From assembly GCA_051313645.2 (NCBI GenBank), contig JBNRSN020000027.1, forward strand, positions 54,932,001 through 54,979,397: 47,397 bases of DNA. Reading direction: 5' to 3'. The notes beneath the pieces are model-generated. The model was not told where the DNA came from. It made no database searches and saw only the letters and a program-made list of their open reading frames with translations. This stretch comes from Centroscyllium fabricii (taxonomy: Eukaryota). Positions 2,787 through 41,258 of the stretch are shown here, piece after piece. Every line of letters starts with the position of its first letter. Positions within the stretch are counted from its first letter, which is position 1. Position numbers and translations under genes: made by a program.

Positions 2787-3485
2787 TTAGTTTAAATCCT
2801 CCCTCACAGCACTAGCAAACACTCCCCCCAGCACATTGGTTCCAGCCCTGCCCAGGTGCAGACCGTCCGGTTTGTGCAGGTCCCACCTCTCCCCGAACCA
2901 GTTCCAATGTCCCAAAAACTTGAATCCCTCCCCCTTGCACCAATCTTCCAGCCATGTATTTATCTGAAGTATCCTTCTATTTCTACTCTGACTAGCACGT
3001 GGCACCGGCAGCAATCCTGAGATTACTACCTTTGAGGTCCTGCTTTTTAATTTATCTCCTAACTCCCTATATTCTGATTTAAGGACCTCATCCCGTTTTT
3101 TACCTATATCGTTGGTGCCTATGTGCACCACGACAACTGGCTGTTCACCCTCCCTTTCCAGGATGTTCTGCAGCCGCTCGGAGACATCCTTGACCCTTGC
3201 ACCAGGGAGGCAACACACCATCCTGGAGTCTCGCTTACGGCCACAGAAATGCCTCTCTATTCCCCTAACAATTGAATCCCCTATGACAATAGCTCTTCCA
3301 CTCTTTTTCCCTCCAGCCTGTGCAGCAGAGCCTCTCCTGGTGCCAGGAAGATGACTGCTGCTGGCTTCCTTTGATAGGTCATCTCCCCCAACAGTACTCA
3401 AAGGGCTGTATCTGTTAGAGAGGGAGATGGCCACAGGGGTTCCCTGCACTACCTGCCTATGTCTGTTTCTCGGCTTGCTGGTCAC
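2787..3485 (-). pseudogene. CR1 ORF1 C-terminal part (SGNH/GDSL esterase domain), 5'-truncated
   Basis: Motifs IGDSIVRG, CLPGA, HIGTNDIG, DGLHL are present. The N-terminal CxxC zinc finger seen at 6904-7854 is missing. Confidence 0.9.
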
Positions 3486-3589
3486 CCTGTTGCAGCTGTG
3501 AATGATGTTGTGGGATCACGATGGATAACATTACTGATTCATGCTCGACTAAGTTACCTTCAGCAAGGCCTGAGAGATACCAGAACTAA

Positions 3590-3862
3590 GAGGTTAGAAC
3601 TATCAGGAAAGATTGAACGGGCTGGAGCTCTTGTCTCTAGAAAAGAGCAGGCTGAGGGGGTGACCTGATCGAGGTCTTCAAAATTATGACGTGGTTTGAT
3701 AGGGTAGACGTAGAGAAGATGTTTCCACTTGTAGACAACGAGTCCAGAACTAGAGGCCATGAATTTAAGACGGTCATCAATAAATCCAGTAAGGAATTCA
3801 GGAAAAACCTCTTTACCCAGAGAGTGTTTAGAATGTGGAACTTGCTCCCACTGGGAGTAGTT
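3590..3862 (+). mobile_element. Older CR1 3' fragment, left part, interrupted by the full-length CR1
   Basis: Encodes DRVDVEKMFPL..SRTRGH..FTQRVFRMWNLLPLGVV and continues in frame at 8874 (EVDSTDAFKGKL). Confidence 0.85.
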
Positions 3863-3952
3863 AGAATCATAGAAGATAGGAGCAGGAGTAGGCCATTCAG
3901 CCCTTCGAGCCTGCTCCGCCATTCAATGAGATCATGGCTGATCTTTAGCAAG

Positions 3953-6907
3953 CTAGTACCCCGTCCCCGCCTTTTCTCCATAACCTTTAATCCCTTTAGC
4001 TTGAAGAAATATATCCAATTCCCTCTTGAATATGTTTAATGAACTGGCCTCCACCGCCCTCTGTGGCAGGGAATTCCACAGGCCCACCACTCTCTGAGTG
4101 AAGAAATTCTTCCTCATGTCTGTCCTAAATGGTTTACCCCTTATCCTTAGACTGTGGCCCCTGGTTCTGGACTCCCCCGCCATTGGAAACATTCTCTCTG
4201 AATCTAACCTGTCCAGACCTTTCAGAATTTTATACGTCTCAATGAGATCACCTCTCAATCTTCTAAACTCCAACGAGTACAAGCCCAGACTACACAATCT
4301 CTCCTCGTAGGTCATTCCTGCCATTCCCGGAATCAGCCTGGTGAAACGCCGCTGCACTCCTTCCATGGCAAGAACATCCTTCCTCAGGCGAGGCGACCAG
4401 AACTGTACACAATACTCGAGGTGTGGTCTCACCAGTGCCTTGTACAGCTGCAGTAAGGTATCCTTATTCCTATACTTGAACCCTCTTGATATGAAGGCCA
4501 ACATACCATTTGCCTTCCTAACCGCCTGCTGCACCTGCGTGCTCGCCTTCAGCGACTGGTGCACAAGAACACCCAGGTCTCTCTGCACCTCCCCATCTCC
4601 CAATCTATTGCCATTTAAGTAGTAATCTACCCTCCTGTTTTTGCCCCCAAAGTGGATAACCTCACATTTATCCACATTATAGTGCATCTGCCATCTATCT
4701 GCCCAGTCCCCCAACTTATCCAAATCTCCCTGTAACTTCCTGACACCCTCTTCAGAGCCTGCTCCCCCTCCTAGTTTGGTGTCATCCGTGAATTTGGAGA
4801 TATTACATTCAATTCCCTGATCCAGATCATTAATATATATTGTAAACAGCTGAGGTCCCAGGACAGACCCCTGCGGTACTCCACTAGTCACCGGCTGCCA
4901 CTCAGAAAACGAGCCGTTAATTCCAACTCTCTGTTTTCTGTCTGCCAACCAGTTCCCTATCCACATCAAAACTTTGCCCCCAATCCCATGAGCCTTAATT
5001 TTGCATGCTAATCTTTTATGTGGAACCTTATCGAAGGCTTTCTGGAAGTCAAGGTACACCACATCTACTGGCTCTCCCCCATCTATTTTCCGAGTTACTT
5101 CCTCAAAGAATTCCAATAGATTAGTTAAACATGATTTACCTTTTGTAAATCCATGTTGACTCTGTCCGATCTCATCCCTAATTGTCAAATGCTCCGAGAT
5201 TACATCCTTGATAATGGACTCGAGCATTTTGCCCACTACTGATGTAAGGCTTACTGGTCTATAATTCCCTGCTTTCTCTCTGCCCCCCTTTTTAAATAGT
5301 GGGGTAACATTAGCCACCCTCCAATCCGTGGGTACTGATCCAGAGTCTATCGAGTTCTGGAAAATGATCCTTAAAGCACCCTCTATTTCCAGGGCTACCT
5401 CTTTAAGTACCCTAGGATGTAGATTATCAGGCCCTGGGGATTTGTCGGCCTTCAATCCCTTCAACTTCCCCAAAACCATCTCCCTAGAAATACTGATATC
5501 TGTTAGCTCCTCCCTTGCATTAGACCCTATGTTCGCTGCTATCCCTGGGAGGTTGCTTGTGTCCTCCTTTGTGAAAACAGTACCAAAATATGAATTTAGT
5601 TGGTCTGCCATTTCTTTATTCCCCATTATATATTCCCCTGAATCGGACTGCAAGGGACCGACTTGGGATTTTACCAATCTTTTCCTCTTGATGTACCTAT
5701 AAAAGCTTTTGCAGTCAGTTTTTATGTTTGCCGCCAGCTTACATTCGTAATCTATCTTTCCCCTCCTGATTAATCCCTTTGTCTTCCTTTGCTGTATCCT
5801 GAACTGCTCCCAATCTTCCGGCCTAGTACTTTTTTTGGCCAATTGATATGCCCATTTTTTGGATTTAATGTTGTCCCTTATTTCCCTTGTTATCCATGGT
5901 TGAGTCACCTTTCTAGGTTTATTCTTATGCCAAACCGGTATGAACGAGTTCTGTATTTCTTCCATCCTATACTTGAATGCTTGCCATTGTCTATCCACAT
6001 TCAATCCCCCCAGGAACACTGCCCAATCTATCTTGCTTAATTCCCTTCTCATACCTTCATAATTCCCTTTATTTAAATTCAGGACCTTAGTCTCTGAGTT
6101 GATCTTTTCACTTTCCATCCCAACTGAGAATTCGATCATATTATGATCGCTCCGACCCAAGGGGCCTCGTACAACTAGATTGCTAATTAGTCCCTTATCA
6201 TTGCACAATACCCAGTCTAAGATGGCCTGATCCCGAGTTGGTTCCTCGACATATTGGTCCAGATACCCATCCCGTAGACATTCTAGGAATTCCTCCTCCT
6301 CAGTATTTTTACTAACTTGGCTAGTCCAATCAATATGTAGATTAAAGTCGCCCATGACGACAGCTGTGCCCTTATTGCAAGCTTCTCTAATTTCCCTTTT
6401 TATGCCGTCCCCCACCTTCATATTACTATTTGGAGGCCTGTATATAACTCCCACTAATGTTTTCCGCCCTTTACTATTTCTTAGTTCTACCCATATAGAT
6501 TCCGTATCATCTGAGTTAATATCCTTCCTTTCAATTGCATTTATCCCCTCTTTCACCAGCAATGCCACCCCACCTCCCTTTCTTTTGTGCCGATCCTTTC
6601 TGAATGTTGTATACCCCGGGATGTTGAGTTCCCAGCCTTGCCCCCCCTGCAGCCATGTTTCCGTAATTCCAATCAACTCATATTTGCTTACCTCTATTTC
6701 CACAGCTAGTTCATCCACCTTGTTCCTAATGCTTCTTGCATTAAGATACAAAGCCTTTAGGCTTGTTTTGATCACACTATTATGAATTTGTTTGACCCTT
6801 TGTGTTTCTCTCCCTTGCTTATTGTTTCTCACCTTCCTACCATTTGTTTCTGGCTTCCTATGACCTCCCTCTTTTCCACTACCTATCCCAACCCCCTGCC
6901 AAGTTAG
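3953..6907 (-). CDS. CR1 ORF2: apurinic-type endonuclease + reverse transcriptase (no ATG start; frame open back to the ORF1 stop region)
   Basis: APE motifs LNARSI, GITETWL, YRPP, GDFN, SDH. RT motifs KSPGPD, NYRPVSLTS, QHGF, DFQKAFD, GVPQGSVLGP, FTDD. The 'M' at 6832 in the track is a GTG codon. Confidence 0.96.
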   Translation of the reverse strand, partial: LTWQGVGIGSGKEGGHRKPETNGRKVRNNKQGRETQRVKQIHNSVIKTSLKALYLNARSIRNKVDELAVEIEVSKYELIGITETWLQGGQGWELNIPGYTTFRKDRHKRKGGGVALLVKEGINAIERKDINSDDTESIWVELRNSKGRKTLVGVIYRPPNSNMKVGDGIKREIREACNKGTAVVMGDFNLHIDWTSQVSKNTEEEEFLECLRDGYLDQYVEEPTRDQAILDWVLCNDKGLISNLVVRGPLGRSDHNMIEFSVGMESEKINSETKVLNLNKGNYEGMRRELSKIDWAVFLGGLNVDRQWQAFKYRMEEIQNSFIPVWHKNKPRKVTQPWITREIRDNIKSKKWAYQLAKKSTRPEDWEQFRIQQRKTKGLIRRGKIDYECKLAANIKTDCKSFYRYIKRKRLVKSQVGPLQSDSGEYIMGNKEMADQLNSYFGTVFTKEDTSNLPGIAANIGSNAREELTDISISREMVLGKLKGLKADKSPGPDNLHPRVLKEVALEIEGALRIIFQNSIDSGSVPTDWRVANVTPLFKKGGREKAGNYRPVSLTSVVGKMLESIIKDVISEHLTIRDEIGQSQHGFTKGKSCLTNLLEFFEEVTRKIDGGEPVDVVYLDFQKAFDKVPHKRLACKIKAHGIGGKVLMWIGNWLADRKQRVGINGSFSEWQPVTSGVPQGSVLGPQLFTIYINDLDQGIECNISKFTDDTKLGGGAGSEEGVRKLQGDLDKLGDWADRWQMHYNVDKCEVIHFGGKNRRVDYYLNGNRLGDGEVQRDLGVLVHQSLKASTQVQQAVRKANGMLAFISRGFKYRNKDTLLQLYKALVRPHLEYCVQFWSPRLRKDVLAMEGVQRRFTRLIPGMAGMTYEERLCSLGLYSLEFRRLRGDLIETYKILKGLDRLDSERMFPMAGESRTRGHSLRIRGKPFRTDMRKNFFTQRVVGLWNSLPQRAVEASSLNIFKRELDIFLQAKGIKGYGEKAGTGY

Positions 6908-7854
6908 TTTAAACCCTCCCCAACCATGCTAGCAAACCTCCCCGCCAGGATATTGGTCCCCCTCCGGTTAAGGTGGAGACCGTCGTCCCCATACAAGTCC
7001 CACCTTTCCCAGAAACAGGGCCAGTTATCCAGGAAACTAAAGCCCTCCCTCCTGCACCAACTCTTGAGCCACGTATTAAGCTGCTCTATCCTCCTATTCC
7101 TATACTCACTAAATCGTGGCACAGGGAGTAATCCAGAGATTACAACCTTTGAGGTCCTGCACTTTAATTTTCTGCCTAGCTCCCTGAATTCTTGTTGCAG
7201 GACCTCATCCCTCTTTTTACCTATGTCGTTGATTCCTATGTGTACAACGACCTCTAACTGGTTTCCCTCCCTTTCCAGGATGCCCTGCAGCCGTCCCGTG
7301 ACATCCTTGACCCTGGCACCAGGGAGGCAACAGACCATCCTGGAGTCACGTCTACGGCCACAGAAACGCCTATCTGCTCCCCTTACGATAGAGTCCCCTA
7401 CCACTATTGCTCTCTCACGCCTTTTCCCCCCCAGCTGAACAGCAGAAGCAACCCCAGTGCCCGGAGGTTGGCCACTGTTGCATTCCCCTGGTAGCTCGTT
7501 CCCCCCAACAGTATCCAAAACGGCATACTTGTTCGTGAGGGGGATGGCCACAGGGGTTTCCTGCTCTACCTGCCTGGCCTTACTGTTCTTTCTGCTGGTC
7601 ACCCAATTCCCTTCTGCCTGCACACCCTTAGCCTGCGGTGTGACCAGCTCACTGTATGAGTGATCCACGCACCTCTCAGTATCGCGAATGCTCCATAACC
7701 CATCCACCCTCAGTTCCAGTGCCGCAATGCGGTCAGTCAGTAACTGAAGGTGGACGCATTTCCCACACACATGGTCACCAGGGACTCCAGTGGTGACCCT
7801 GGCTTCCCACATGTGGCAGGAGGAGCAAAGCACGGCACCGAGCTCCACTGACAT
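6904..7854 (-). CDS. CR1 ORF1: zinc finger (CxxC..CxxC) + leucine zipper + SGNH esterase domain
   Basis: CSSC...CGKC, then heptad LTDRIAALELRVDGL, then GDS / PGA / GIND / DGLH blocks. ATG at 7854. Confidence 0.95.
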   Translation of the reverse strand: MSVELGAVLCSSCHMWEARVTTGVPGDHVCGKCVHLQLLTDRIAALELRVDGLWSIRDTERCVDHSYSELVTPQAKGVQAEGNWVTSRKNSKARQVEQETPVAIPLTNKYAVLDTVGGNELPGECNSGQPPGTGVASAVQLGGKRRERAIVVGDSIVRGADRRFCGRRRDSRMVCCLPGARVKDVTGRLQGILEREGNQLEVVVHIGINDIGKKRDEVLQQEFRELGRKLKCRTSKVVISGLLPVPRFSEYRNRRIEQLNTWLKSWCRREGFSFLDNWPCFWERWDLYGDDGLHLNRRGTNILAGRFASMVGEGLN

Positions 7855-8269
7855 GACGTACCCCTCTAATTACTTTTACAAAAAATTTAACACCACCAAA
7901 AAAACAAGATATATACTAGGGTGCTAGTCTACCAGAAGTCCCCGTTATACCACAGAGACCTCAGAAAAAGAAATAACAATAAAAATAAAAAAATATCACT
8001 TACCCTGCTTGCCTTTATAGCCGCCGCCTCCTGGAAAAAAGAACAATGACCCGGAAAACTCCTGTCCTGGTCCTGCTGCCGCCGCCGACTGCTACCTCTG
8101 TCCAGGAGCCCTTCCACTTAGGTTAAGTCCCTGAAACAAAAAACAAATCAAACCTACCTTTTAAATTCCCTCTACCCCTAAAGGTTAGAGGAGGTGGAAG
8201 GGTGGGAGACACTACTAGTGTAGTGTCTCGGGTTTAGCAACTGCTCCACCTATATACGGGTACCAATGG

Positions 8270-10314: not shown

Positions 10315-10359
10315 TTCTGTGAGAGTGCTTGGTGATGTCGTAAAGAGGCATAGAAGAAG
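10315..10359 (+). CDS. AKAP13: AKAP13-like coding exon A (45 nt, phase 2-2): SVRVLGDVVKRHRR
   Basis: Acceptor tttattttcag and donor AAG|gtaaaa. Resembles human AKAP13 SMRVLGDVVRRPPIHRR (recalled). Splices in frame to 20134 to give RRSYSLEGLT. Confidence 0.85.
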
Positions 10360-11434: not shown

Positions 11435-12040
11435 AAAATGGGTGTGGTAGTGTAGTGGCTGTGGTACTGAACGAGCAACTCGGAGGTCATGAGTTCAAGT
11501 CCCACCACGATAAGTTCTGAAATTGAATTCAATAAATTTGATACAGGTTGAGCACCGGTAATCTGGCGCCCTCGGGACCAGGCCGGTGCCGGACCACTGA
11601 AAATTCCGAACCTCTGAAAGTTCGGGTAGAACGCGCGGGTAGAACACTCCCCGGGGCCCGGAGCGCGCGGGTAGAACACTCCCCGGGAGGCAGCCCGGGA
11701 ATAGAAGACTTACAAGCCTTAAAAAACAGAAACCCGAAGCCTTCGGCGCTCGCCCTCCCTTCGCAGGAAACGGTGGCGCTGCCGAGCGGCTGCTCCGCAA
11801 ACCGAAGACTGCCGGTTTCGATTCATGCCGGACCACTGAAGGTGCCGGACCATCGGGTGCCGGATTACCGGTGCTCAACCTGTATTACCAAATCTGGTAA
11901 ATTTGTGGGTTAAAAATATGACCATTTATTAATAGGGAAGGAAACCTGGCCTGACCTACAAGTGGCTCCAGTCTCAGACTCTGAAGTGGACGAGTCACTC
12001 AGCTGTCAGGGCAGCTTGGCGTAGGTTATAAATTCCAATG
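11435..12040 (+). mobile_element. Old tRNA-derived SINE split by a MITE
   Basis: B-box-like GAGTTCAAGTCCC, then AATTGAATTCAATAAAT. A related reverse fragment lies at ~29690-29850. Confidence 0.45.
11544..11882. mobile_element. Tigger/pogo-like MITE, family A
   Basis: TA|CAGGTTGAGCACCGGTAATC...GATTACCGGTGCTCAACCTG|TA, with internal GGTAGAACACTCCCC repeats. Confidence 0.9.
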
Positions 12041-12387: not shown

Positions 12388-13240
12388 CGTGAGGGTCGTG
12401 AGGACGGCTGAAAAGATCATCGGGTGTGCACTTCCATCCATCGAGGAGATCTTCCAGACCAGGTGTCGGAACAAGGCCCACTCCATCATCCAGGACCTCA
12501 ATCACCCTGGGCACGATCTGTTCTCCCTCCTGCGGTCCGGCCGTCGGTACTGCAGCATCCGAACCAGGACCAGCAGGTTCAAAAACAGTTTCTACCCACA
12601 GGCTACTGAACTGCTAATCACACTTGTTTGCTTATTTGTTTATTTGCTTATTATTTTTTATATTTATACTTGTTTTTACTTTTGCCTTTTATATTTATGC
12701 TTATACAGGTTGAGCACCATTAATCCGTTACCCGAAAAACCGTCAACTTCGAACGTCTGGCAATAATTTCCCCGACTACCCCGCGCATGCGCAGAATGGC
12801 CGCCGCGATTGAAGCTTTGGCGAATGATCTGCGCATGCGCAGATCATTCAAAATGGTCTCTCTGAGCCGATGGCCGGGCCGGGACTCCCCTAACGCGGGC
12901 TGGGCCGGGATTCCCCGAACGCGGGCCGGGCTGGGACTCCCCGAACGCGGGCCGGGCCGGGATTCCCCGAAGGATGCTGGGCCGGGACTCCCCGAACGTT
13001 AAGTGCATGCGCAGACCACTCAAAATGGCCGCTGGCCTTTCGCGGTAGCCATTTTGAATGGTCTGCGCATGCGCTCGCCGAAGTTTCAGTCGTTCTGGAT
13101 TTTGACTTCCCCGGCATGGCCCTGGTCCCGCCCGTGCCAGATTAACGGTGCTCAACCTGTATTGTGGGAGTGAGTGGGGAGTAGGCATTCCATTGTACCA
13201 GTCACATATGGCAATAAAATAATCTTGAATCTTATTTGAA
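12388..13240 (+). mobile_element. Rex1/Babar-type LINE 3' fragment (MITE inserted in its 3' UTR)
   Basis: RT C-terminus VVRTAEKIIG..HPGHDLFSLLRSGRRYCSIRTRTSRFKNSFYPQA, ending GCAATAAA + TCTTGAATCTT. Confidence 0.85.
12706..13159. mobile_element. Tigger/pogo-like MITE, family B
   Basis: TA|CAGGTTGAGCACC...GGTGCTCAACCTG|TA, with internal GCGCATGCGC and AAAATGGCC motifs. Confidence 0.9.
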
Positions 13241-13405
13241 AACTGGAAAAGCCATTAAAATTATTTTTCATGTGACCTCAGAGCTTGAACCCAGCTTGGT
13301 GTCCTTGCATCGAGCCTTTTGCTGACACTCTCTGGATACACTTCTCATCTCTTTGCTCTGTCATTATTTCCTTCCTCATTCTCCTCCTTTCTCCCCTTAC
13401 TCCTA

Positions 13406-13640
13406 CATAGATACATAGATACATAGATGATAGGAGCAGGAGTAGGCCATTCGGCCCTTCGAGCCTGCTCCGCCATTCAATGAGATCATGGCTGATCCTT
13501 CAGTTCAGTATCCCGTCCCTGCCTTCTCTCCGTAACCTTTAACCCCTTTTGCCTGCAGAAATATATCTAATTCCCTCTTAAATATGTTTAATGAGCTGGC
13601 GTCCACTGCCCTCTGTGGCAGTGAGTTCCACAGGTTCACC
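13406..13640 (-). mobile_element. CR1 3' fragment with 7-bp target-site duplication ACTCCTA
   Basis: (CATAGATA)n tail plus CR1 3' end. ACTCCTA occurs at 13399-13405 and 13641-13647. Confidence 0.9.
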
Positions 13641-13648
13641 ACTCCTAG

Positions 13649-13711
13649 TATGAGTTGGTGTCCCTTTGAGAATCAGTTCCTTTCCATGGTGTCTGACATT
13701 AATCACAGAAG
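13649..13711 (+). CDS. AKAP13: AKAP13-like alternative exon B (63 nt, phase 2-2): SMSWCPFENQFLSMVSDINHR
   Basis: ctcctag|T ATG AGT TGG TGT CCC ... AGA AG|gtacgg. Resembles the human AKAP13 alternative exon MSWCPSGVQ...DFNYR (recalled). Same phases as exon A. Confidence 0.8.
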
Positions 13712-14107
13712 GTACGGATCATTACAGGCGCTGACGGAAGATCAGATGGTTTCACATCTGTGTTTTCAGTTTGAAGGTGAAAGGGGGGGAAATTGAGCAT
13801 CTTAAGCTGACAATAACTCGCATAAATAAAAAGGAAAAAAAATAATGCTGGAACTCTGAAGTAAAAACGGAACATTCTGGAAATACACCACAGATCTGCC
13901 ACCACCTGAAAAGAGCAAAGAAAAGTATTTCCTTGATTGGATTGAAGTAGGTTTTACACACACAATGACATCTGGCAGAAAGAACTCATTTCAGTTATTT
14001 ATAGCTTCTGGCTTTCGCTGAATTTGTGTGGCGGGGGGTAAAATTACTAAATACATTCCCCAAGAATAGTGTGGTGGGATTTGCAGGGCCAGTACAGATG
14101 AACATGC

Positions 14108-14632: not shown

Positions 14633-15436
14633 CAGGTACACAATCCTTTATCCGCTACTCCGAAAACCTCCAAAAAACGAAATTACAAATAGAAACATAG
14701 AAACTAGGAGCAGGAGTAGGCCATTCGGCCCTTCGAGCCTGCTCCGCCATTCAATGAGATCATGGCTGATCATCCAAACCCAGCACCCCACCCCTGCCCT
14801 CTCCCCACATCCCTCGATCCCTATCGAGCCTCCATCAACACATATCCCACCCTATCCCCGCAACCCCACATATCCAATCCCCCTAACACTAAGGGTCAAT
14901 TTATCCTGGCCAATCAACCTAACCCGCACATCTTTGGACTGTGGGAGGAAACCGGAGCACCCGGAGGAAACCCACGCAGACACGGGGAGAATGTGCAAAC
15001 TCCACACAGATAGTCACCCGAGGCTGGATTTGAACCCGGGTCTCCAGTGCTGTGAGACAGCAGTGCTAACCACTGTGCCACCGTGCCGGGTCATATTTCG
15101 CGCGCAAATGACCCGAGTTGCGCGCGAAATATGACCCGGCGCTCCGGCCACACAGGCCCCGATGGCCCCCGATGCTCCCGGCATCCGACGGCCCCGATGC
15201 TCCCGGCACCCGATGGCCCCGATGCACCCGACCGCTGATCTCTGATATTTTTACAAATAAACTTTACTAGAGTACTTATAAACTGTTTATAGTCTTTATT
15301 TATCCCACTTTTTGTGAATATTCACAAGGTTCATGCAGAAATATTAATGTTAATGCGACCATTCCGAAAACCAAAAATATCCGAAATCCGATAACCGTCC
15401 GGTCCCAATGTTTTCGGTTGAAGGATTGTGTACCTG
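14633..15436. mobile_element. Tigger4-like MITE containing an HE1 SINE
   Basis: TA|CAGGTACACAATCCTTTATCCG...CGGTTGAAGGATTGTGTACCTG, with TCCGAAA motifs. Confidence 0.8.
14691..15088 (-). mobile_element. HE1-type V-SINE, full length
   Basis: A/B boxes, V-domain and CR1 tail on the minus strand. Confidence 0.92.
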
Positions 15437-18990: not shown

Positions 18991-19400
18991 ATAGAAACAT
19001 AGAAACATAGAAGATAGGAGCAGGAGTCGGCCATTCGGCCCTTCGAGCCTGCTCCGCCATTCAATGAGATCATGGCTGATCATCCAAACCCAGCACCCTG
19101 TCCCTGCCTTCTCCCCATATCCCTCGATCCCTATCGAGCCTGCATCGACACATATCCCACCCTATCCCCGCAACCCCACATATTTAATCGCCCTAACACT
19201 AAGGGTCAATTTATCCTGGCCAATCAACCTAACCCGCACATCTTTGGACTGTGGGAGGAAACCGGAGCACCCGGAGGAAACCCACGCAGACACGGGGAGA
19301 ATGTGCAAACTCCGCACAGATAGTACCCGAGGCTGGATTTGAACCCGGGTCTCCAGTGCCGTGAGGCAACAGTGCTAACCACTGTGCCACCGTGCCGCCC
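18991..19400 (-). mobile_element. HE1-type V-SINE, full length
   Basis: A/B boxes, V-domain, (CATAGAAA)n tail. Confidence 0.92.
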
Positions 19401-20133: not shown

Positions 20134-20329
20134 TTACAGCCTGGAAGGACTGACAGCTGGCAACGAGGTGACCAAGGAGCCGTCGCACACCGTGGAGGCT
20201 GCCTTGCGGAACTACCGCGACCCTCGCCGAACTCCGATGGTCAGCGCCGATGAGCGTGGATCGCTAGTCTCACTGACCGAGGAGGAGATGGAGTCGGACC
20301 ACAGCGAGGGCAGCGTATTTGAAAAGACG
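20134..20329 (+). CDS. AKAP13: AKAP13-like coding exon (196 nt, phase 2-0): YSLEGLT...ERGSLVSLTEEEMESDHSEGSVFEKT
   Basis: attcag|T TAC AGC ... ACG|gtaaag. Resembles human AKAP13 FSLEGLT...DSLVSLSEEDLESD (recalled). Confidence 0.9.
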
Positions 20330-21587: not shown

Positions 21588-21751
21588 GTCCCAAAATGCT
21601 TCGCACCCAATGAAGTACTTTTGAAGTGTAGTCACTGTTATAATGGAGGAAATGCTCAGCACATTTGTATTGCATTATTATTCCAACTTCATCTGCTATT
21701 TTAGCAGAGGCAGCGTAACCTCATTTTAATAATCATTGTTACTCATTGGTA

Positions 21752-22438
21752 CAGGTTGTGCACCGTTAATCTGTTACCCGATAAGCCAGCAGCTTCAGTC
21801 TTCCGGAACAGATTGCCCTGACTGCTCTGAACATGCGCAAAATGGCCGCCGCGATTGATGCATCATGAATGATCTGCGCATGTGCCGCCGAACAGCGAGC
21901 GCATGCGCACATCATTCACAATGGCCGCCGCGAAGTTTTTAATGATCTGCGCATGCGCTGCCGTACGATCACGAGCCGGGCCTTCCCGAGCCTCACCTTA
22001 CCGAGCCGGGCCAGGGCTTCCTGAGCCGGGCCTTCCTGAGCAGGGCCTTGCCTCGCCTTACTGAGCCTCCCCGAGCTGGGCCTCACCTTGCCTTGCCTTA
22101 CTGAGCCTTCCCGAGCCGGGCCTCACCTCGCCTTGCCTTCCCGAGCCGGGACTCGCCTCGCCTCGCCTTGCCTTGCCGAGCCGGGCCGGGGCTTGCCGGG
22201 CCTCGCCTCTCCTTGCCGAGCCTTCCCGAGCCAGGCCGGGCCTTACCGAGCCTCCCCGAGCCGGGCCTTACCGAAAGATAAGCGCATGCGCAAACCACTC
22301 AAAATGGCCACTGGCCTTTTCGCGGCGGCGATTTTGAATGGTCTGCGCATGCGCTCGCCGAAGCTTCAATAGTTCGGGATTTTCACTTTCCCGGCATGGG
22401 CCTGGTCCGACCGTGCCAGAGTAACGGTGCTCAACCTG
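21752..22438. mobile_element. Tigger/pogo-like MITE, family B, with expanded internal (GCCTT/CCGAG) repeats
   Basis: TA|CAGGTTGTGCACCGTTA...TAACGGTGCTCAACCTG|TA. Confidence 0.9.
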
Positions 22439-22461
22439 TACTGCTATATTCTCACAGTATC

Positions 22462-23833: not shown

Positions 23834-23918
23834 AAGTTGGCCAGGGTACAACTGCATTCTGCTCCTCCGCTGACCAAATCCATGTCGCTGCAAGCCATCA
23901 GCCCACCGAACACAGACA
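23834..23918 (+). CDS. AKAP13: AKAP13-like coding exon (85 nt, phase 0-1): KLARVQLHSAPPLTKSMSLQAISPPNTD
   Basis: tttccttccag|AAG ... GAC A|gtgagt. Resembles human PLTKSISLMTISHPGLD (recalled). Phase is compatible with both neighbours. Confidence 0.9.
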
Positions 23919-24509
23919 GTGAGTACTGAGTGCAGTGTTCAGCATACTATTAGCCGAATAAAAATGACTAATTCAAGTGGTGCATGTGTTGGGAGCGACC
24001 AAGAGTGGAAATGCTGAAAGTCTTGCGCTAATTTTTTTTTAAAGTGCATGTGTTTTCTTTTTGCCACTTTTGCTTTTCCCCAGTTTTTCTCCTCTCCTTG
24101 AAGGCATTGACTCCTTACTGTAGCACAGCTCCAGGGGTGCTGCTCGCCCTGCAGGACCATACCCAAGTGGCCATTGTTCATGGGTGGACCTTGACCGTTA
24201 GCAGCAACAAGCAATTTAATCGTAAAGGGCACCTTGGAAAAAGCCCCGCGTTGTCACCCTCCAGTGTCCACATATACCGACGCCAAGCAATGGAAAATGT
24301 GCCCCTCCTTACCACCGGGTTTGAGGCGGGGGGGTGCTGTTGGTGCGATTGGCTCGACCACTGTCCCAGCTAACTTACCACAGACTGGGAATCAAACCTG
24401 GCAACGCCCACTGCTGAAGCAATGATCCCATTGCTGTTTGTGGGATCTTGCTCTTCACAGACTAGCTGCCATTTTTGCCTGCATAACAATAGTGACCATA
24501 CTTAAAATG

Positions 24510-31130: not shown

Positions 31131-31302
31131 TTGGTGGGGGAGGGAGGGTGAGGGCACAATGGAGAGCCAGCAAAAACGTTAATGCCTTTAATCTCCCAAG
31201 GTGCTTTACAGAGGAGGGGTAAAAAGAAACATTTTAATTTTAAATGGGCAGCATGGCGTGATGCGAGAGTTGGGGAAGGCGGCCTGAAAGCTGGGTCTAA
31301 TA

Positions 31303-31721
31303 CAGGTCGAGCACCATTGATCGGGACACCGTTAATCCGGCAACTTCAGTCGTCCAGAACGAATCCGGCCGACTGGTGTGTGCATGCACAAAATGGCCGC
31401 CGCGCTTGGCTGCGCATGACCGGGCCTCTCCCCGACTGCCCATGTGCAAAATGGCTGCTGCGCATGCCCGAGCCTCTCCCCGACTGGTCTGCGCATGCGC
31501 AATATGGCCGCCGCACTTGGCTGCGCATGCCCGGGCCTCTCCCCGACCGATTGATGCTTCGGCGAGCGCATGCGCAGACCATTCAAAATGGCCTCTGGCG
31601 TTCGCGGTGGCCATTTTGAATGGTCTGCGCATGTGCTCGCCAAAGCTTCAATCGTTTGGATTTTTCAAAAATCCGGCACTGTCCTGGTCCCGACCGTGCC
31701 GGATTAACGGTGTCGGACCTG
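31303..31721. mobile_element. Tigger/pogo-like MITE, family B
   Basis: TA|CAGGTCGAGCACC...GGTGTCGGACCTG|TA, with GCGCATGCGC repeats. Confidence 0.87.
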
Positions 31722-31744
31722 TAAATGGATTCTGAGAAACATAG

Positions 31745-32278
31745 AAGATGGCGACAAGATGGCGGCGCGCATAGACGCAGCGGCTTTGCGTCTCCCAAGG
31801 AAATGATGTCCGCTGGTCCCCATACTGGTTTTGAGCGTGGCCAGGTGCCGGTAACATCGAGGCCGTCATGGCTGGAGCCTGCGTGGCCCGAGCATTGGGG
31901 CTGGAGCGTCGTGGCAGGGCGCTAGGAGCTTCGGGGCCTGCGTGGCCTGAGCGTCGGGGCTGGAGCGTCGGGTCCGTCGTGGCCGGAGCATCAGGGCCAG
32001 GAGCATCGGAGCCTGCGTGGCCTGTGCATCGGGGCTGGAGCGTCGGGGCCGTCGTGGCCGGGCGCTAGGAGCTTCGGGGCCTGCGTGGCCTGAGCGTCGG
32101 GGCTGGAGCGTCGGGGCCTGAGCATCGGGACCGTCGGGGGCATTATGGACCAGACTGGGACTTACAGGAGAGGACATTTTAATATCTATTGTTTCTTTGG
32201 GAGATTGCATGTTTGCATTTCATTGTATTGTGTTCGCTTTACAATGACAATAAATTGAATTGTATTGTATTGTATTGT
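31745..32278 (+). mobile_element. Non-autonomous retroposon with AAGATGGCGG 5' end and Rex1-like tail
   Basis: 5' AAGATGGCGACAAGATGGCGGCG, internal GC-rich repeats, 3' AATGACAATAAA(TTGTA)n. Confidence 0.7.
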
Positions 32279-32612
32279 AAGATAGGAGCAGGAGTAGGCC
32301 ATTTAGCCCCTCGAGCCTGCTCTGCCATTTAATGAGATCCATGGCTGATCACCCAAATTCAGTACCCTGTCCCTGCTTTCTCCCCATATCCCTTGATCCC
32401 TTTAGCCTTAAGAAATATATCTAACTCCTTCTTGAATATATTTAATGAATTGGCCTCTATGGCTTTCTGTGGTAGAGAATTCCACAGGTTCACCACTCTC
32501 TGGGTGAAGAAATTCCTCCTCATCTCAGTCCTAAATGGCTTGCCCCTTATCCTTAGACTGTGACCCCTGGTTCTGGACTTCCCCGGCCATCAGGAACATC
32601 CTTCCTGCAACT
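32279..32612 (-). mobile_element. CR1 3' fragment
   Basis: Near-identical to the 3' end of 36016-36470 and 43605-44072. Confidence 0.9.
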
Positions 32613-32861: not shown

Positions 32862-33210
32862 CAGGTTGAACACCTGTAATCCGGCACTCGATGGTCCGGC
32901 ACCTTCAGTGGTCCGGCTTGAATCAAAACCGGCGCTCTTCAGTTTGCGGAGCAGCCGTTTGGTGGCGCCACCGTTTCCCGCGAAGGGTGGGCGAGCGCCG
33001 AAGGCGTCGGGCGTTTGGGTTTCTGTTTTTTTTAAGGCTTGTAAGTGTTCTATCCCCGGGCTCCCTTCCAGGGAGTGTTCTACCCGCACGCTCCAGGCCC
33101 CAGGGAGTGTTCTACCCGCGCGTTCTACCTGAACCTTCGGTGGTTCCGTATTTTCAGTGGTCCGGCACTGGCCTGCTCCCAAGGGTGCCGGATTACTGGT
33201 GCTTAACCTG
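32862..33210. mobile_element. Tigger/pogo-like MITE, family A (reverse orientation)
   Basis: TA|CAGGTTGAACACC...GGTGCTTAACCTG|TA. Confidence 0.9.
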
Positions 33211-34386
33211 TATTGGTACCTTTTTAAGCTTTGTGAAGTTTGTCGGGGGGAGAGCGGGGGGGAATGCTGGGACAGTCGGCTCTTTGCGAATGTTAACAAT
33301 TCATCCAGCATTCTAGCGCCAACGAGCGTTGATTTTTTTGCATGTATTTACATCTTAATTTTCTGCTGCAGCTTGAAAGCCTCGGCAGCTGCCCTTGAAG
33401 TGGGAGAAGCATGGTCCTTTAAAGGTGCCTGGCCAAGTCGCAAATCATTCTAATGTCTATCATCTGTAGCAAGCTGCAATTAACATTGAATTTTCATGTC
33501 TAAAAATAGTTTGGGTAACTTGACCAAAATTATATGCGAAGATTAAAAGCATAAGCAGCTGGCTGATGAATGGCTTTCTAGTGTTTGTCGGATAATCGGA
33601 GGCAGTGTGAATGTAAGTGGCTGTCTGTTCTGAGACTGCAGATGTCTTGCGTGAACACCAACTGCAGCAATCGAAAAAATGAAGCCTGACCGCTTCCTTA
33701 TGGGGAAAAAAAAGGATGAGCTGGTTCGTTTTCCTTAAACAGATCCTTACAGAATTTGAGCAATACTTGCATCAGTCTGAAATAATGACTGCCAGAAGCT
33801 TTGGGTTAAGTGTACTGAATCCAAATGAGCAACATAGCAGTCAGCACTTCGAAAGAGATGAGTCACTACTGGGCCGAGGGTGGAGCTAATGTCCTAATTG
33901 AGTGGTGTTGGAAAATCTTCAAGTATACATAAAATAAGAGCAGGCAATTGAAGACATGGGTTAAAAGAACCAGTGATGTAGATCATTTGGACCAAGTTCC
34001 ATAAAAGGCTCCCGATTTTTAAAAAAAACCTGAAAAGCTGTGTTCTACTCTCGTGTTGTAATAAAGGGAGTAGCCATATGTTTCTTGCCTGGTGCTTTAA
34101 TATTTAATTTGGAATTCCAAACTTGAGTAACCAGTGACTGGAAAATAGCTTATGGTTTTATTGATGCTGTTTTCTGAGAATTGAATGAAGTGAGAATTGC
34201 AGCGGTCTGGTTCATTTACGTCAAAGGTAAATTATCGAACCCTGTAGCTTATTGGCTCGTCTAACTACCACAGAATCGTAGAATTCAAAAGCAAAGGAGG
34301 CGGCCATTCATCCCAATGTGTGTGTGCTGACTCTCTGATAATTCACAATATATATTAATGATCTAGACGAGGGAACCAGATGTATT

Positions 34387-37481: not shown

Positions 37482-37881
37482 GGCGGCACGGTGGCATAGT
37501 GGTTAGCACTGTTGCCTCACAGCACTAGAGACCCGGGTTCAAATCCAGCCTCGGGTACTATCTGTGTGGAGTTTGCACATTCTCCCTGTGTCTGCGTGGG
37601 TTTCCTCCGGGTGCTCCGGTTTCTTCCCACAGTCCAAAGATGTGCGGGATAGGCTGATTGGCCAGGATAAATTGACCCTTAGTGTTAGGGGGATTGAATA
37701 TGTGGGGTTACAGGGATAGGGTGGGATGTGGGTCGGTGCAGGCTCGATAGGGATCGAGGGATATGGAGAGAGGGCAGGGGCGGGGTGATGGGTTTGGATG
37801 ATCAGCAATGATCTCATTGAATGGCGGAGCAGGCTCAAAGGGCCAAATGGCCTACTCCTGCTCCTATCTTCTATGTTTCTA
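37482..37881 (+). mobile_element. HE1-type V-SINE, full length
   Basis: A/B boxes, V-domain, tail. Confidence 0.92.
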
Positions 37882-37883
37882 TA

Positions 37884-38212
37884 TCCACTTAACTGCTGAC
37901 ATCCAACGTTCCTTCCTGGCCCCCGTGCTAGCTGACATTGTAAATGGTGCCCTCAGCTCGGGTACTGCCCACCTCATTTTCAAAAATACCGTTATCACCC
38001 CTTCCTCAAAAACCCACCCTTAACCTGCCCCCCCCCACAGTCTTTGCCAACTACCGCACCATCTCTAATTTCCTTTTCCTCTCCAAAGTCCCTGACTGCG
38101 TTGTCGCCTCCCAATTCCGTGCTCATCTTTCCCACGCACCCACGTTTGAATCCCTCCGATCAGGTTTCCGTCTCTGCCGCAGCACTGAAACGGACCTGAG
38201 CAAAGTCGTGAA
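37884..38212 (+). mobile_element. L2-type LINE RT fragment
   Basis: LADIVN..LSSG..NYRTISNFLFLSKV..FESLRSGFR..STET. Confidence 0.75.
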
Positions 38213-40533: not shown

Positions 40534-40653
40534 AACCTGGGCGGACCAGGCCCAAGAAGAGAATCTCCTTTTCCTTGAACATCTCTCCACTCCTTCCTAA
40601 GTCTAAAACTATCTTTTCTCTTGGTTCTTCCTCAAGTGATGATGAGTCAGATA
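40534..40653 (+). CDS. AKAP13: Probable AKAP13-like cassette exon (120 nt, phase 1-1): PGRTRPKKRISFSLNISPLLPKSKTIFSLGSSSSDDESD
   Basis: tgttgacag|AA CCT ... GAT A|gtaagt with a perfect donor. Phase matches the 23918 donor. Lies in repeat-free sequence. Confidence 0.78.
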
Positions 40654-40875: not shown

Positions 40876-40887
40876 TAGTTCTGTATA

Positions 40888-41258
40888 CAGGTTGAGCACC
40901 GTTAATCTGGCACCCTCAGGACTAGGCCGGTGCTGGACCACTGCAAATTCCGAACCACTGAAGGTTTGGTGGGAGCGCGCGGTAGAACACTCCCCAGAGC
41001 ACGCGGTAGAACACTCCCCGGGGCCCGGTGCGCGCGGTAGAACACTCCCCGGGGCCCGGAGCCCGTGGGTAGAACACCCCCCGGGAGGGAGCCCGGGGAT
41101 AGAACACTTGGAACACCTTCGGCGCTTGCTCATCATTCGTGGGAAACGGTGGCGCCGCCGAGCGGCTGCTCCGCAAAATGAAGAGCGCCGATTTCCAATC
41201 GTGCCGGACCACTGAAGCTGCCAGACCATCGGGTGCTGGATTACCGGTGTTCAACCTG
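40888..41258. mobile_element. Tigger/pogo-like MITE, family A
   Basis: TA|CAGGTTGAGCACC...GGTGTTCAACCTG|TA. Confidence 0.9.

Follow-up and report, generated by a model that had tools for sequence, protein, structure and literature searches.

Predicted effects of an antisense CR1 insertion at the 3' splice site of an optional AKAP13 exon in the shark Centroscyllium fabricii

Retroelements that end up within 3' splice sites have been described in several genes, and those reports provide the frame for the case presented here. In the dog, merle is an antisense SINEC_Cf located at the boundary between intron 10 and exon 11 of PMEL (PMC6091007, PMC7349775), and in human NF1, Alu insertions into the AG or the polypyrimidine tract led to exon skipping in all four cases reported (PMC3219598). 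Point variants can have similar consequences, since 24 out of 49 variants that introduced a new AG into the AG-exclusion zone caused skipping (PMC7317903). The element considered here is a CR1, a clade whose canonical marks are an esterase ORF1, 5' truncation, a 3' hairpin and an octamer tail (PMC4316615; PMC13343379); chondrichthyan L2s lack an ORF1, and so do Rex1 and Zenon (PMC13343379). According to another study, CR1-like LINEs occupy introns of more than 88% of whale shark genes (10.1101/443036). In the open-licence literature we found no paper on the shark locus analysed below, nor on a CR1 insertion at a shark acceptor.

A CR1 fragment in the acceptor of an AKAP13 cassette exon

The stretch that we analysed, hereafter the window, comprises 47,397 nucleotides of Centroscyllium fabricii (GCA_051313645.2, contig JBNRSN020000027.1, positions 54,932,001 to 54,979,397, forward strand), and its features are collected in Table 1. 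A protein search with the exon at 20134-20329 gave 30 matches at E <= 0.01, and among the 27 for which a name was listed 22 were AKAP13 and five were unnamed or hypothetical, the best being a match of 92% to sawshark AKAP13. Five AKAP13 exons lie collinearly on the forward strand, so that by its best protein matches and exon order the locus is the AKAP13 orthologue, with the RhoGEF (DH-PH) and PKA-anchoring parts lying outside the window.

Table 1. Positions of exons, splice signals and CR1-derived features in the window (Y, pyrimidine share)
Feature	Positions	Strand	Remarks
Near-complete CR1 LINE	3862..7869	-	991-aa ORF2 unbroken; 321-aa esterase ORF1
Cassette exon A	10315..10359	+	45 nt, phase 2-2
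Native 3' splice-site region of exon B	13315..13405	+	AG-free run, polypyrimidine tract, branch-point match
Target-site duplication, upstream copy	13399..13405	+	ends TA-C; AG no longer formed
5'-truncated CR1 LINE 3' end	13406..13640	-	right boundary ambiguous up to 13644 (microhomology)
Octamer microsatellite tail	13406..13428	-	~2.9 copies; + strand TAGs ending 13410, 13418, 13426
3'-UTR hairpin of CR1 insert	13433..13471	-	weak: z -1.97; 7/200 shuffles equally stable
End of LINE ORF2 (45 codons and stop)	13505..13642	-	still open
CR1-borne candidate acceptor	13539..13558	+	branch-point match (A 13542, -17), Y 0.80, CAG, 48-nt AG-free zone
CR1-borne cryptic donor GCA/GTGAGT	13618..13626 (cut 13621)	+	resembles the gene's own donor at 23919
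CR1-borne CAG	13631..13633	+	15 nt before original AG; weak tract, Y 0.55
Downstream duplication copy plus G	13641..13648	+	original TAG acceptor, which CR1 sequence now precedes
Cassette exon B	13649..13711	+	63 nt, phase 2-2, MSWCP...; donor AAG/GTACGG at 13712
Next exon (YSLEGL...)	20134..20329	+	in all homologous models examined
Following exon	23834..23918	+	own donor ACA/GTGAGT at 23919
Further exon	40534..40653	+	skipped in 1/4 sawshark models

The exon of interest, exon B, is present in two of four sawshark models, in two of the five anchored Callorhinchus models and in nine of 18 chondrichthyan representatives, all of these being annotation models rather than reads. Judged by orthologue models of other species, in which it is both included and skipped, exon B is a frame-neutral cassette exon: since it starts and ends in phase 2, skipping it keeps the reading frame. 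NOVA2 favours, in human cells, the skipping of an AKAP13 "exon 12" (10.1101/858696), and when the primers of that study were placed by eye the amplicon spanned the pair of cassette exons A and B, either of which could be "exon 12". Counts of NOVA-type YCAY motifs near exon B are unremarkable. Together, exons A and B form an Arg-Arg-Ser-Met-Ser run, which we take to resemble a basophilic kinase site. A neighbouring site, S1565, bound 14-3-3 in one study and was dispensable alone in another (PMC10099770).

The heptamer ACTCCTA is present in the window at just two places (13399-13405 and 13641-13647), and the 235 nt that separate these two copies are the CR1 insert, which is antisense to AKAP13 and 5'-truncated. 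At the right junction the CR1's own sequence runs on as ACTC into the downstream duplication (ACTC or ACC is found there in seven of seven other copies), and at the left junction the tail unit of the CR1 ends in TA, again a microhomology with the duplication, so that the exact boundaries of the insert are ambiguous by 2-4 nt. Four letters of the duplication are thus shared with the element, and a chance match of the other three has a probability of about 1 in 64. With its duplication, its tail and its truncated 5' end, the insert is built as expected of a true retro-insertion. What it interrupted is a tract of 87.5% pyrimidine (13340-13403) within a 94-nt AG-free run, having a putative branch point, by a match to the pattern YTNAY, at the A in position 13378; the original AG has been shifted 242 nt away from both. 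A first-pass annotation of this DNA had described such an event, and all of its coordinates and arithmetic are correct (duplication, 235 nt, AG positions and exon lengths), while its assignments of the gene, the alternative exon, the CR1 element and the duplication hold up, as does the claim that the native tract was lost to the acceptor.

One may also consider that the insertion is an artefact of assembly or a rare heterozygous allele. The window is rich in repeats, 50% of it being covered by self-matches. We compared the window with contigs from four of 21 listed sequencing runs. Of these, the run of organism B reaches neither a junction nor the exon and run X3 has no coverage of 13261-13420, and neither bears on the insertion there. 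Both samples of the species, which come from one study and perhaps from one animal, one of them possibly being that from which the assembly was made, gave a single contig over 13615-14100 that matches the window without a difference and extends past the exon into the element by about 30 letters. These contigs do not branch at the duplication, where their element side measures 26-33 letters, a borderline length with respect to the 31-letter rule that applies here, and the left junction is masked. Nevertheless, unbranched and identical contigs in both samples, together with the anatomy described above, make an artefact or a rare allele extremely unlikely. No empty allele was seen in these two samples, which is weak evidence against the polymorphism that had been implied when the insertion was called an "allele".

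In a related species (organism D), which is about 5% divergent in intron pieces (20 of 440 positions), the exon contig fits the window only from 13643 (letter 45 of its 171) and has no continuation into the element; the comparison covers letters 45-171 and leaves aside the joints over 13401-13429. A fit that begins at 13643 is what an empty site would give where 13401-13429 are masked, and it is consistent with an absence of the insertion from this species. Genotyping across individuals and relatives, which had been suggested as a check, thus goes as far as a filled site in both samples of C. fabricii and an apparently empty one in the relative.

The insert matches 24 further places in the window, and the best match (88% over 231 nt) is to a near-complete LINE on the reverse strand (3862-7869), at its 3' end. 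The ORF2 of that LINE contains the Pfam domains RVT_1 and Exo_endo_phos (reverse transcriptase and endonuclease), and the ORF directly upstream of it contains a GDSL lipase domain (E 1e-15). On the basis of these domains, which were read in a related copy rather than in the insert's own parent, and of its truncation and tail, we assign the insert, as a fragment, to the CR1 clade of LINEs. It contains the final 45 codons of ORF2 and so is not the SINE whose end resembles the CR1 tail. Compared with its nearest copy, its ORF2 end has 13 synonymous changes and three changed codons, and seven of the eight letters that are private to the insert relative to seven other copies are third codon positions of ORF2 (p 0.003 against an expectation of one third). 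These patterns suggest a young copy that stands close to a working source element, from a subfamily otherwise absent from the window. Two pattern scans of a metagenome collection found no further copies of the element.

Among the 22 long tail matches within the window, 17 contain YAG repeats (counted by eye). Since these repeats are built into the CR1 tail, the three TAGs are an automatic product of any antisense copy. There is no orientation bias among the CR1 tails in the gene (11 antisense, 13 sense, p 0.84).

Other repeats were noted in passing. A second piece of an esterase ORF1 is found at 2787-3515, and one CR1 tail copy, at 32281-32498, has a terminal pentamer repeat in place of the octamer (TTGTA on the forward strand). 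Several SINE-like repeats (14688-15235, 18991-19340, 37540-37950 and others) resemble the CR1 tail in no more than the final 90-170 nt, which fits known shark SINE/LINE pairs (PMC3747384). About 240 nt upstream of the native tract lies an element (12704-13162) whose ends are inverted repeats with TA on either side and whose interior contains hairpins and a tandem repeat of 26 nt. From this anatomy we presume that it is a non-autonomous MITE of the Tc1/mariner type. Relatives of it are found near 11540-11890, 21750-22440, 31300-31720, 33140-33215 and 40880-40960, and GC-rich degenerate tandem repeats in or beside such relatives at 31150-32220 give rise to long open frames of low complexity.

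Candidate splice sites after the insertion

We described the strength of each site by its pyrimidine share (Y), its AG-free zone and the presence of a branch-point match, which are simple descriptors with rules carried over from mammals. AG dinucleotides now end at 13410, 13418, 13426 and 13648, and the respective exons up to the donor at 13712 would measure 301, 293, 285 and 63 nt. Among the sites compared, the acceptor at 13411 has the best descriptors (Y 0.85, a 94-nt AG-free zone, a branch-point match at -33), and its TAG is separated from the native tract by just 4 nt more than the old AG was; the acceptors at 13419 and 13427 are weaker (Y 0.60 and 0.40). With 13411 a stop follows after four codons, and for the three tail acceptors, in the order given, the stops inside the exon (13424, 13540 and 13428) precede the junction at 13711 by 285, 169 and 281 nt. 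Nonsense-mediated decay (NMD) acts on stops that precede a junction by more than 50-55 nt. By this rule NMD would be expected for all three acceptors; the first-pass annotation had the exon lengths of 301, 293 and 285 nt right, but had placed a stop at once only in the 285-nt form and had treated the other two as frameshifts.

These positions make a poison exon, as had been proposed, mechanically plausible: a native branch-point match and tract remain in place and the first AG is displaced by merely 4 nt. Every inclusion through 13411 would then create an NMD target, and the old tissue pattern of exon B would tune the dose of AKAP13. New AGs between branch point and acceptor do often become cryptic acceptors (PMC9284458), and the stop lies 285 nt before the junction. 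However, such AGs also silence exons and cause skipping (PMC9284458, PMC7317903), the 301-nt exon, most of which is LINE, would need to be defined as an exon, and, as TAGs come automatically with tails of this kind, nothing points to regulation or selection. We regard a dose-tuning poison exon as unlikely. As an unproductive event it is not conserved, the insertion being apparently absent from the related species and the CR1 copy being young.

The list of three TAG acceptors in the first-pass annotation was correct and incomplete: it missed the acceptors ending at 13558 and 13633 as well as the donor at 13621. The CAG at 13558 would yield an in-frame exon of 153 nt, with 30 additional LINE-derived residues and an open frame up to the donor. 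None of the seven other copies in the window has the clean tract and CAG seen there, the letters responsible being those at 13550 and 13556. Used together with the acceptor at 13559, the cryptic donor at 13621 would define a 62-nt frameshifting exon. The acceptor at 13634 would give an in-frame exon of 78 nt with five additional residues, and skipping of exon B, in frame, is available as well.

An in-frame exonisation in the manner of merle, where the extension is in frame and adds 52 residues (PMC6091007, PMC7349775), could then have rescued the exon and allowed the insertion to spread. The acceptor at 13558 is complete, and the copy carrying it is unusual in this respect. Its 153 nt are also a typical size for an exon. 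On the other hand, the improving letters are third-position and silent in the ORF2 of the LINE, which means that they were inherited with the source element rather than selected here; for the same reason we rejected an origin and selection after insertion for the donor at 13621, the CAG at 13558 and the loss of the AG at 13550. The competing donor at 13621 could trim the product to the frameshifting 62 nt, and the extension would part the conserved MSWCP from the upstream arginines, with loss of the Arg-Arg-Ser-Met-Ser run, which among the candidate outcomes is kept only by the original acceptor at 13648. No protein with the extended exon was found using a query of 30 + 20 residues, a weak search with one candidate, and none of 140 anchored AKAP13 models, which include none from C. 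fabricii, has an insert resembling the 30-residue extension. All in all, we consider a rescue by in-frame exonisation improbable.

A related proposal would go further, namely that this CR1 subfamily encodes, by means of synonymous ORF2 codons, a complete antisense splice cassette with branch point, tract, CAG and, 62 nt on, a GTGAGT donor, which here took the place of the acceptor destroyed by the insertion, and that exon B has become a fixed, merle-like switch between a poison form and a form with 30 extra residues, born in a single step. We hold this to be very doubtful. If true, it would represent a one-step origin of both a splice switch and new protein sequence by a CR1 LINE, and possibly the first visible case of a genome-wide route of exonisation in sharks, whose introns are full of CR1.

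As a separate observation, the source subfamily appears to hold a ready-made antisense cryptic exon of 62 nt (window 13539-13626), and other antisense intronic copies of that subfamily would be candidates for exonisation or purging.

The original acceptor at 13649 has gone from Y 0.95 to 0.70, and its AG-free zone from more than 90 to 13 nt. It may be that the insertion is nearly silent, with 13649 or 13634 working on CR1-derived pyrimidines and inclusion continuing much as before; cryptic merles, which are short inserts, still use the original acceptor (PMC6091007, PMC7349775). The value of 0.70 equals that of a native acceptor of the gene, at 23834, and is close to that at 10315 (0.75), and MSWCP, frame and donor are intact. 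Nevertheless, the tract before 13649 is rich in C and poor in T, a usable branch-point match is not reached until -58, with four AGs in between, and the CAG at -15 falls in a zone described as high-risk in PMC9284458, which makes a near-silent insertion distinctly improbable in our view. It had been suggested previously that the exon might rely on CR1-derived pyrimidines, and if so, such pyrimidines would better serve the overlooked in-frame CAG at 13558 than the original AG.

Possible erosion of the cassette exons and the preferred reading

The most conserved part of exon B, MSWCP, is preserved, as are the frame and the donor. That the frame and donor are intact had been remarked upon before, and while true it is weak evidence of use, since 87-91% of neutrally mutated copies of exon B stay free of stops after three to four substitutions and since there are signs of erosion. 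Five of the 20 residues of exon B are absent from nine other chondrichthyans, compared with five of 93 in the two exons that follow (Fisher p 0.015, a post hoc test). Seven other sharks have between zero and two such private residues out of 20, and the ray and the chimaera, on longer branches, have four and five. When the comparison is with sawshark alone, the figures are 6/20 against 13/93 (p 0.10) with two control exons and 6/20 against 15/132 (p 0.036) with three.

Against the related species, exon B has four listed differences (up to three more may be present in the contig), all of which change the amino acid, and per position it has changed no less than intron (4/63 against 20/440, p 0.52). 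A tally of the listed change types implies that this species shares two of the five private residues, which would mean, indirectly, that part of the erosion predates the insertion. Exon A, in turn, has an in-frame loss of 9 nt, removing three residues that are kept in all 14 other chondrichthyan models holding exon A. These observations hint that exons A and B are under loose constraint and may be eroding in this lineage, although the erosion figures are small.

Taken together, we lean slightly towards a tolerated knock-down of a dispensable exon, which would be mostly skipped, with minor poison and extended forms, and not towards an evolved poison switch. In this reading, target-primed reverse transcription of a recently active CR1 LINE placed an antisense, 5'-truncated copy in the TAG of the exon B acceptor; the anatomy of the site shows that 7 nt were duplicated and that the original AG was parted from its branch point and tract. 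Normal inclusion through 13649 would be largely lost, and exon B would mostly be skipped in frame, which is an ordinary isoform in other sharks. Skipping is favoured by human precedent, i.e. the Alu insertions of NF1 and the new-AG variants. Residual inclusion would be split between the native tract with 13411, leading to NMD, and the CR1-borne acceptor at 13559, leading to the in-frame form. The resemblance in pyrimidine share between 13649 and the gene's native acceptors may count against such a loss, but a weakening of exon B inclusion by the insertion is what the changes at the acceptor most likely predict.

We propose that the insertion persisted since exon B was dispensable and already loosely constrained in this lineage, in which case the insert would be a tolerated passenger that is finishing off, or scrambling, an optional exon. 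By a rough estimate that disregards selection, about 0.05-0.19 landings per window are expected in the last 10-40 nt before one of the five acceptors, and thus, at this repeat density, a landing this near to an acceptor is roughly speaking not improbable.

If the knock-down is real, the locus would be a natural example of a LINE persisting at an acceptor when the exon is optional and frame-neutral, as well as of lineage-specific decay of two AKAP13 cassettes that have been kept from sharks to mammals. It also offers five junctions that one RT-PCR could distinguish.

Comparison with known systems

We view the insertion as probably a further case of a known type of event and give it neither the label of poison exon nor that of exonised element, the event being not conserved and the use of its splice sites a prediction.

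Its resemblance to merle is considerable: in both, an antisense non-LTR retroelement sits in an acceptor, the duplication holds the original acceptor (PMC6091007, PMC7349775), and the element supplies a tract and an acceptor that extend the exon in frame, by 52 residues in merle and by a predicted 30 in the shark. In contrast, merle is a SINE with an oligo(dT) tract whose length tunes splicing, whereas the shark insert is a LINE tail whose octamer adds TAGs bound to stops. The NF1 Alus are similar to the shark insert in being retro-insertions with a duplication into a 3' splice site (PMC3219598), but they are de novo, pathogenic, L1-driven and located in constitutive exons, while the shark insertion is lineage-restricted, presumably tolerated and CR1-driven.

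As in the AG-exclusion-zone variants, a new AG may become an acceptor or silence the exon (PMC9284458, PMC7317903), although those are point variants in human disease, whereas the shark gained three AGs and 242 nt at once. With respect to the element itself, the 5' truncation, ORF2 end, hairpin and octamer tail are those of CR1-clade 3' ends (PMC4316615, PMC13343379), an assignment at the level of the clade. Ready-made antisense splice sites that permit exonisation are also a property of active mouse L1 subfamilies (PMC2176070). There, however, the element is an L1 and transcripts provide the evidence, just as merle, a polymorphism in a constitutive last exon, has a phenotype and proof from RNA, whereas the shark case is a single CR1 copy at an internal optional exon, with no empty allele seen, and is known from its sequence only.
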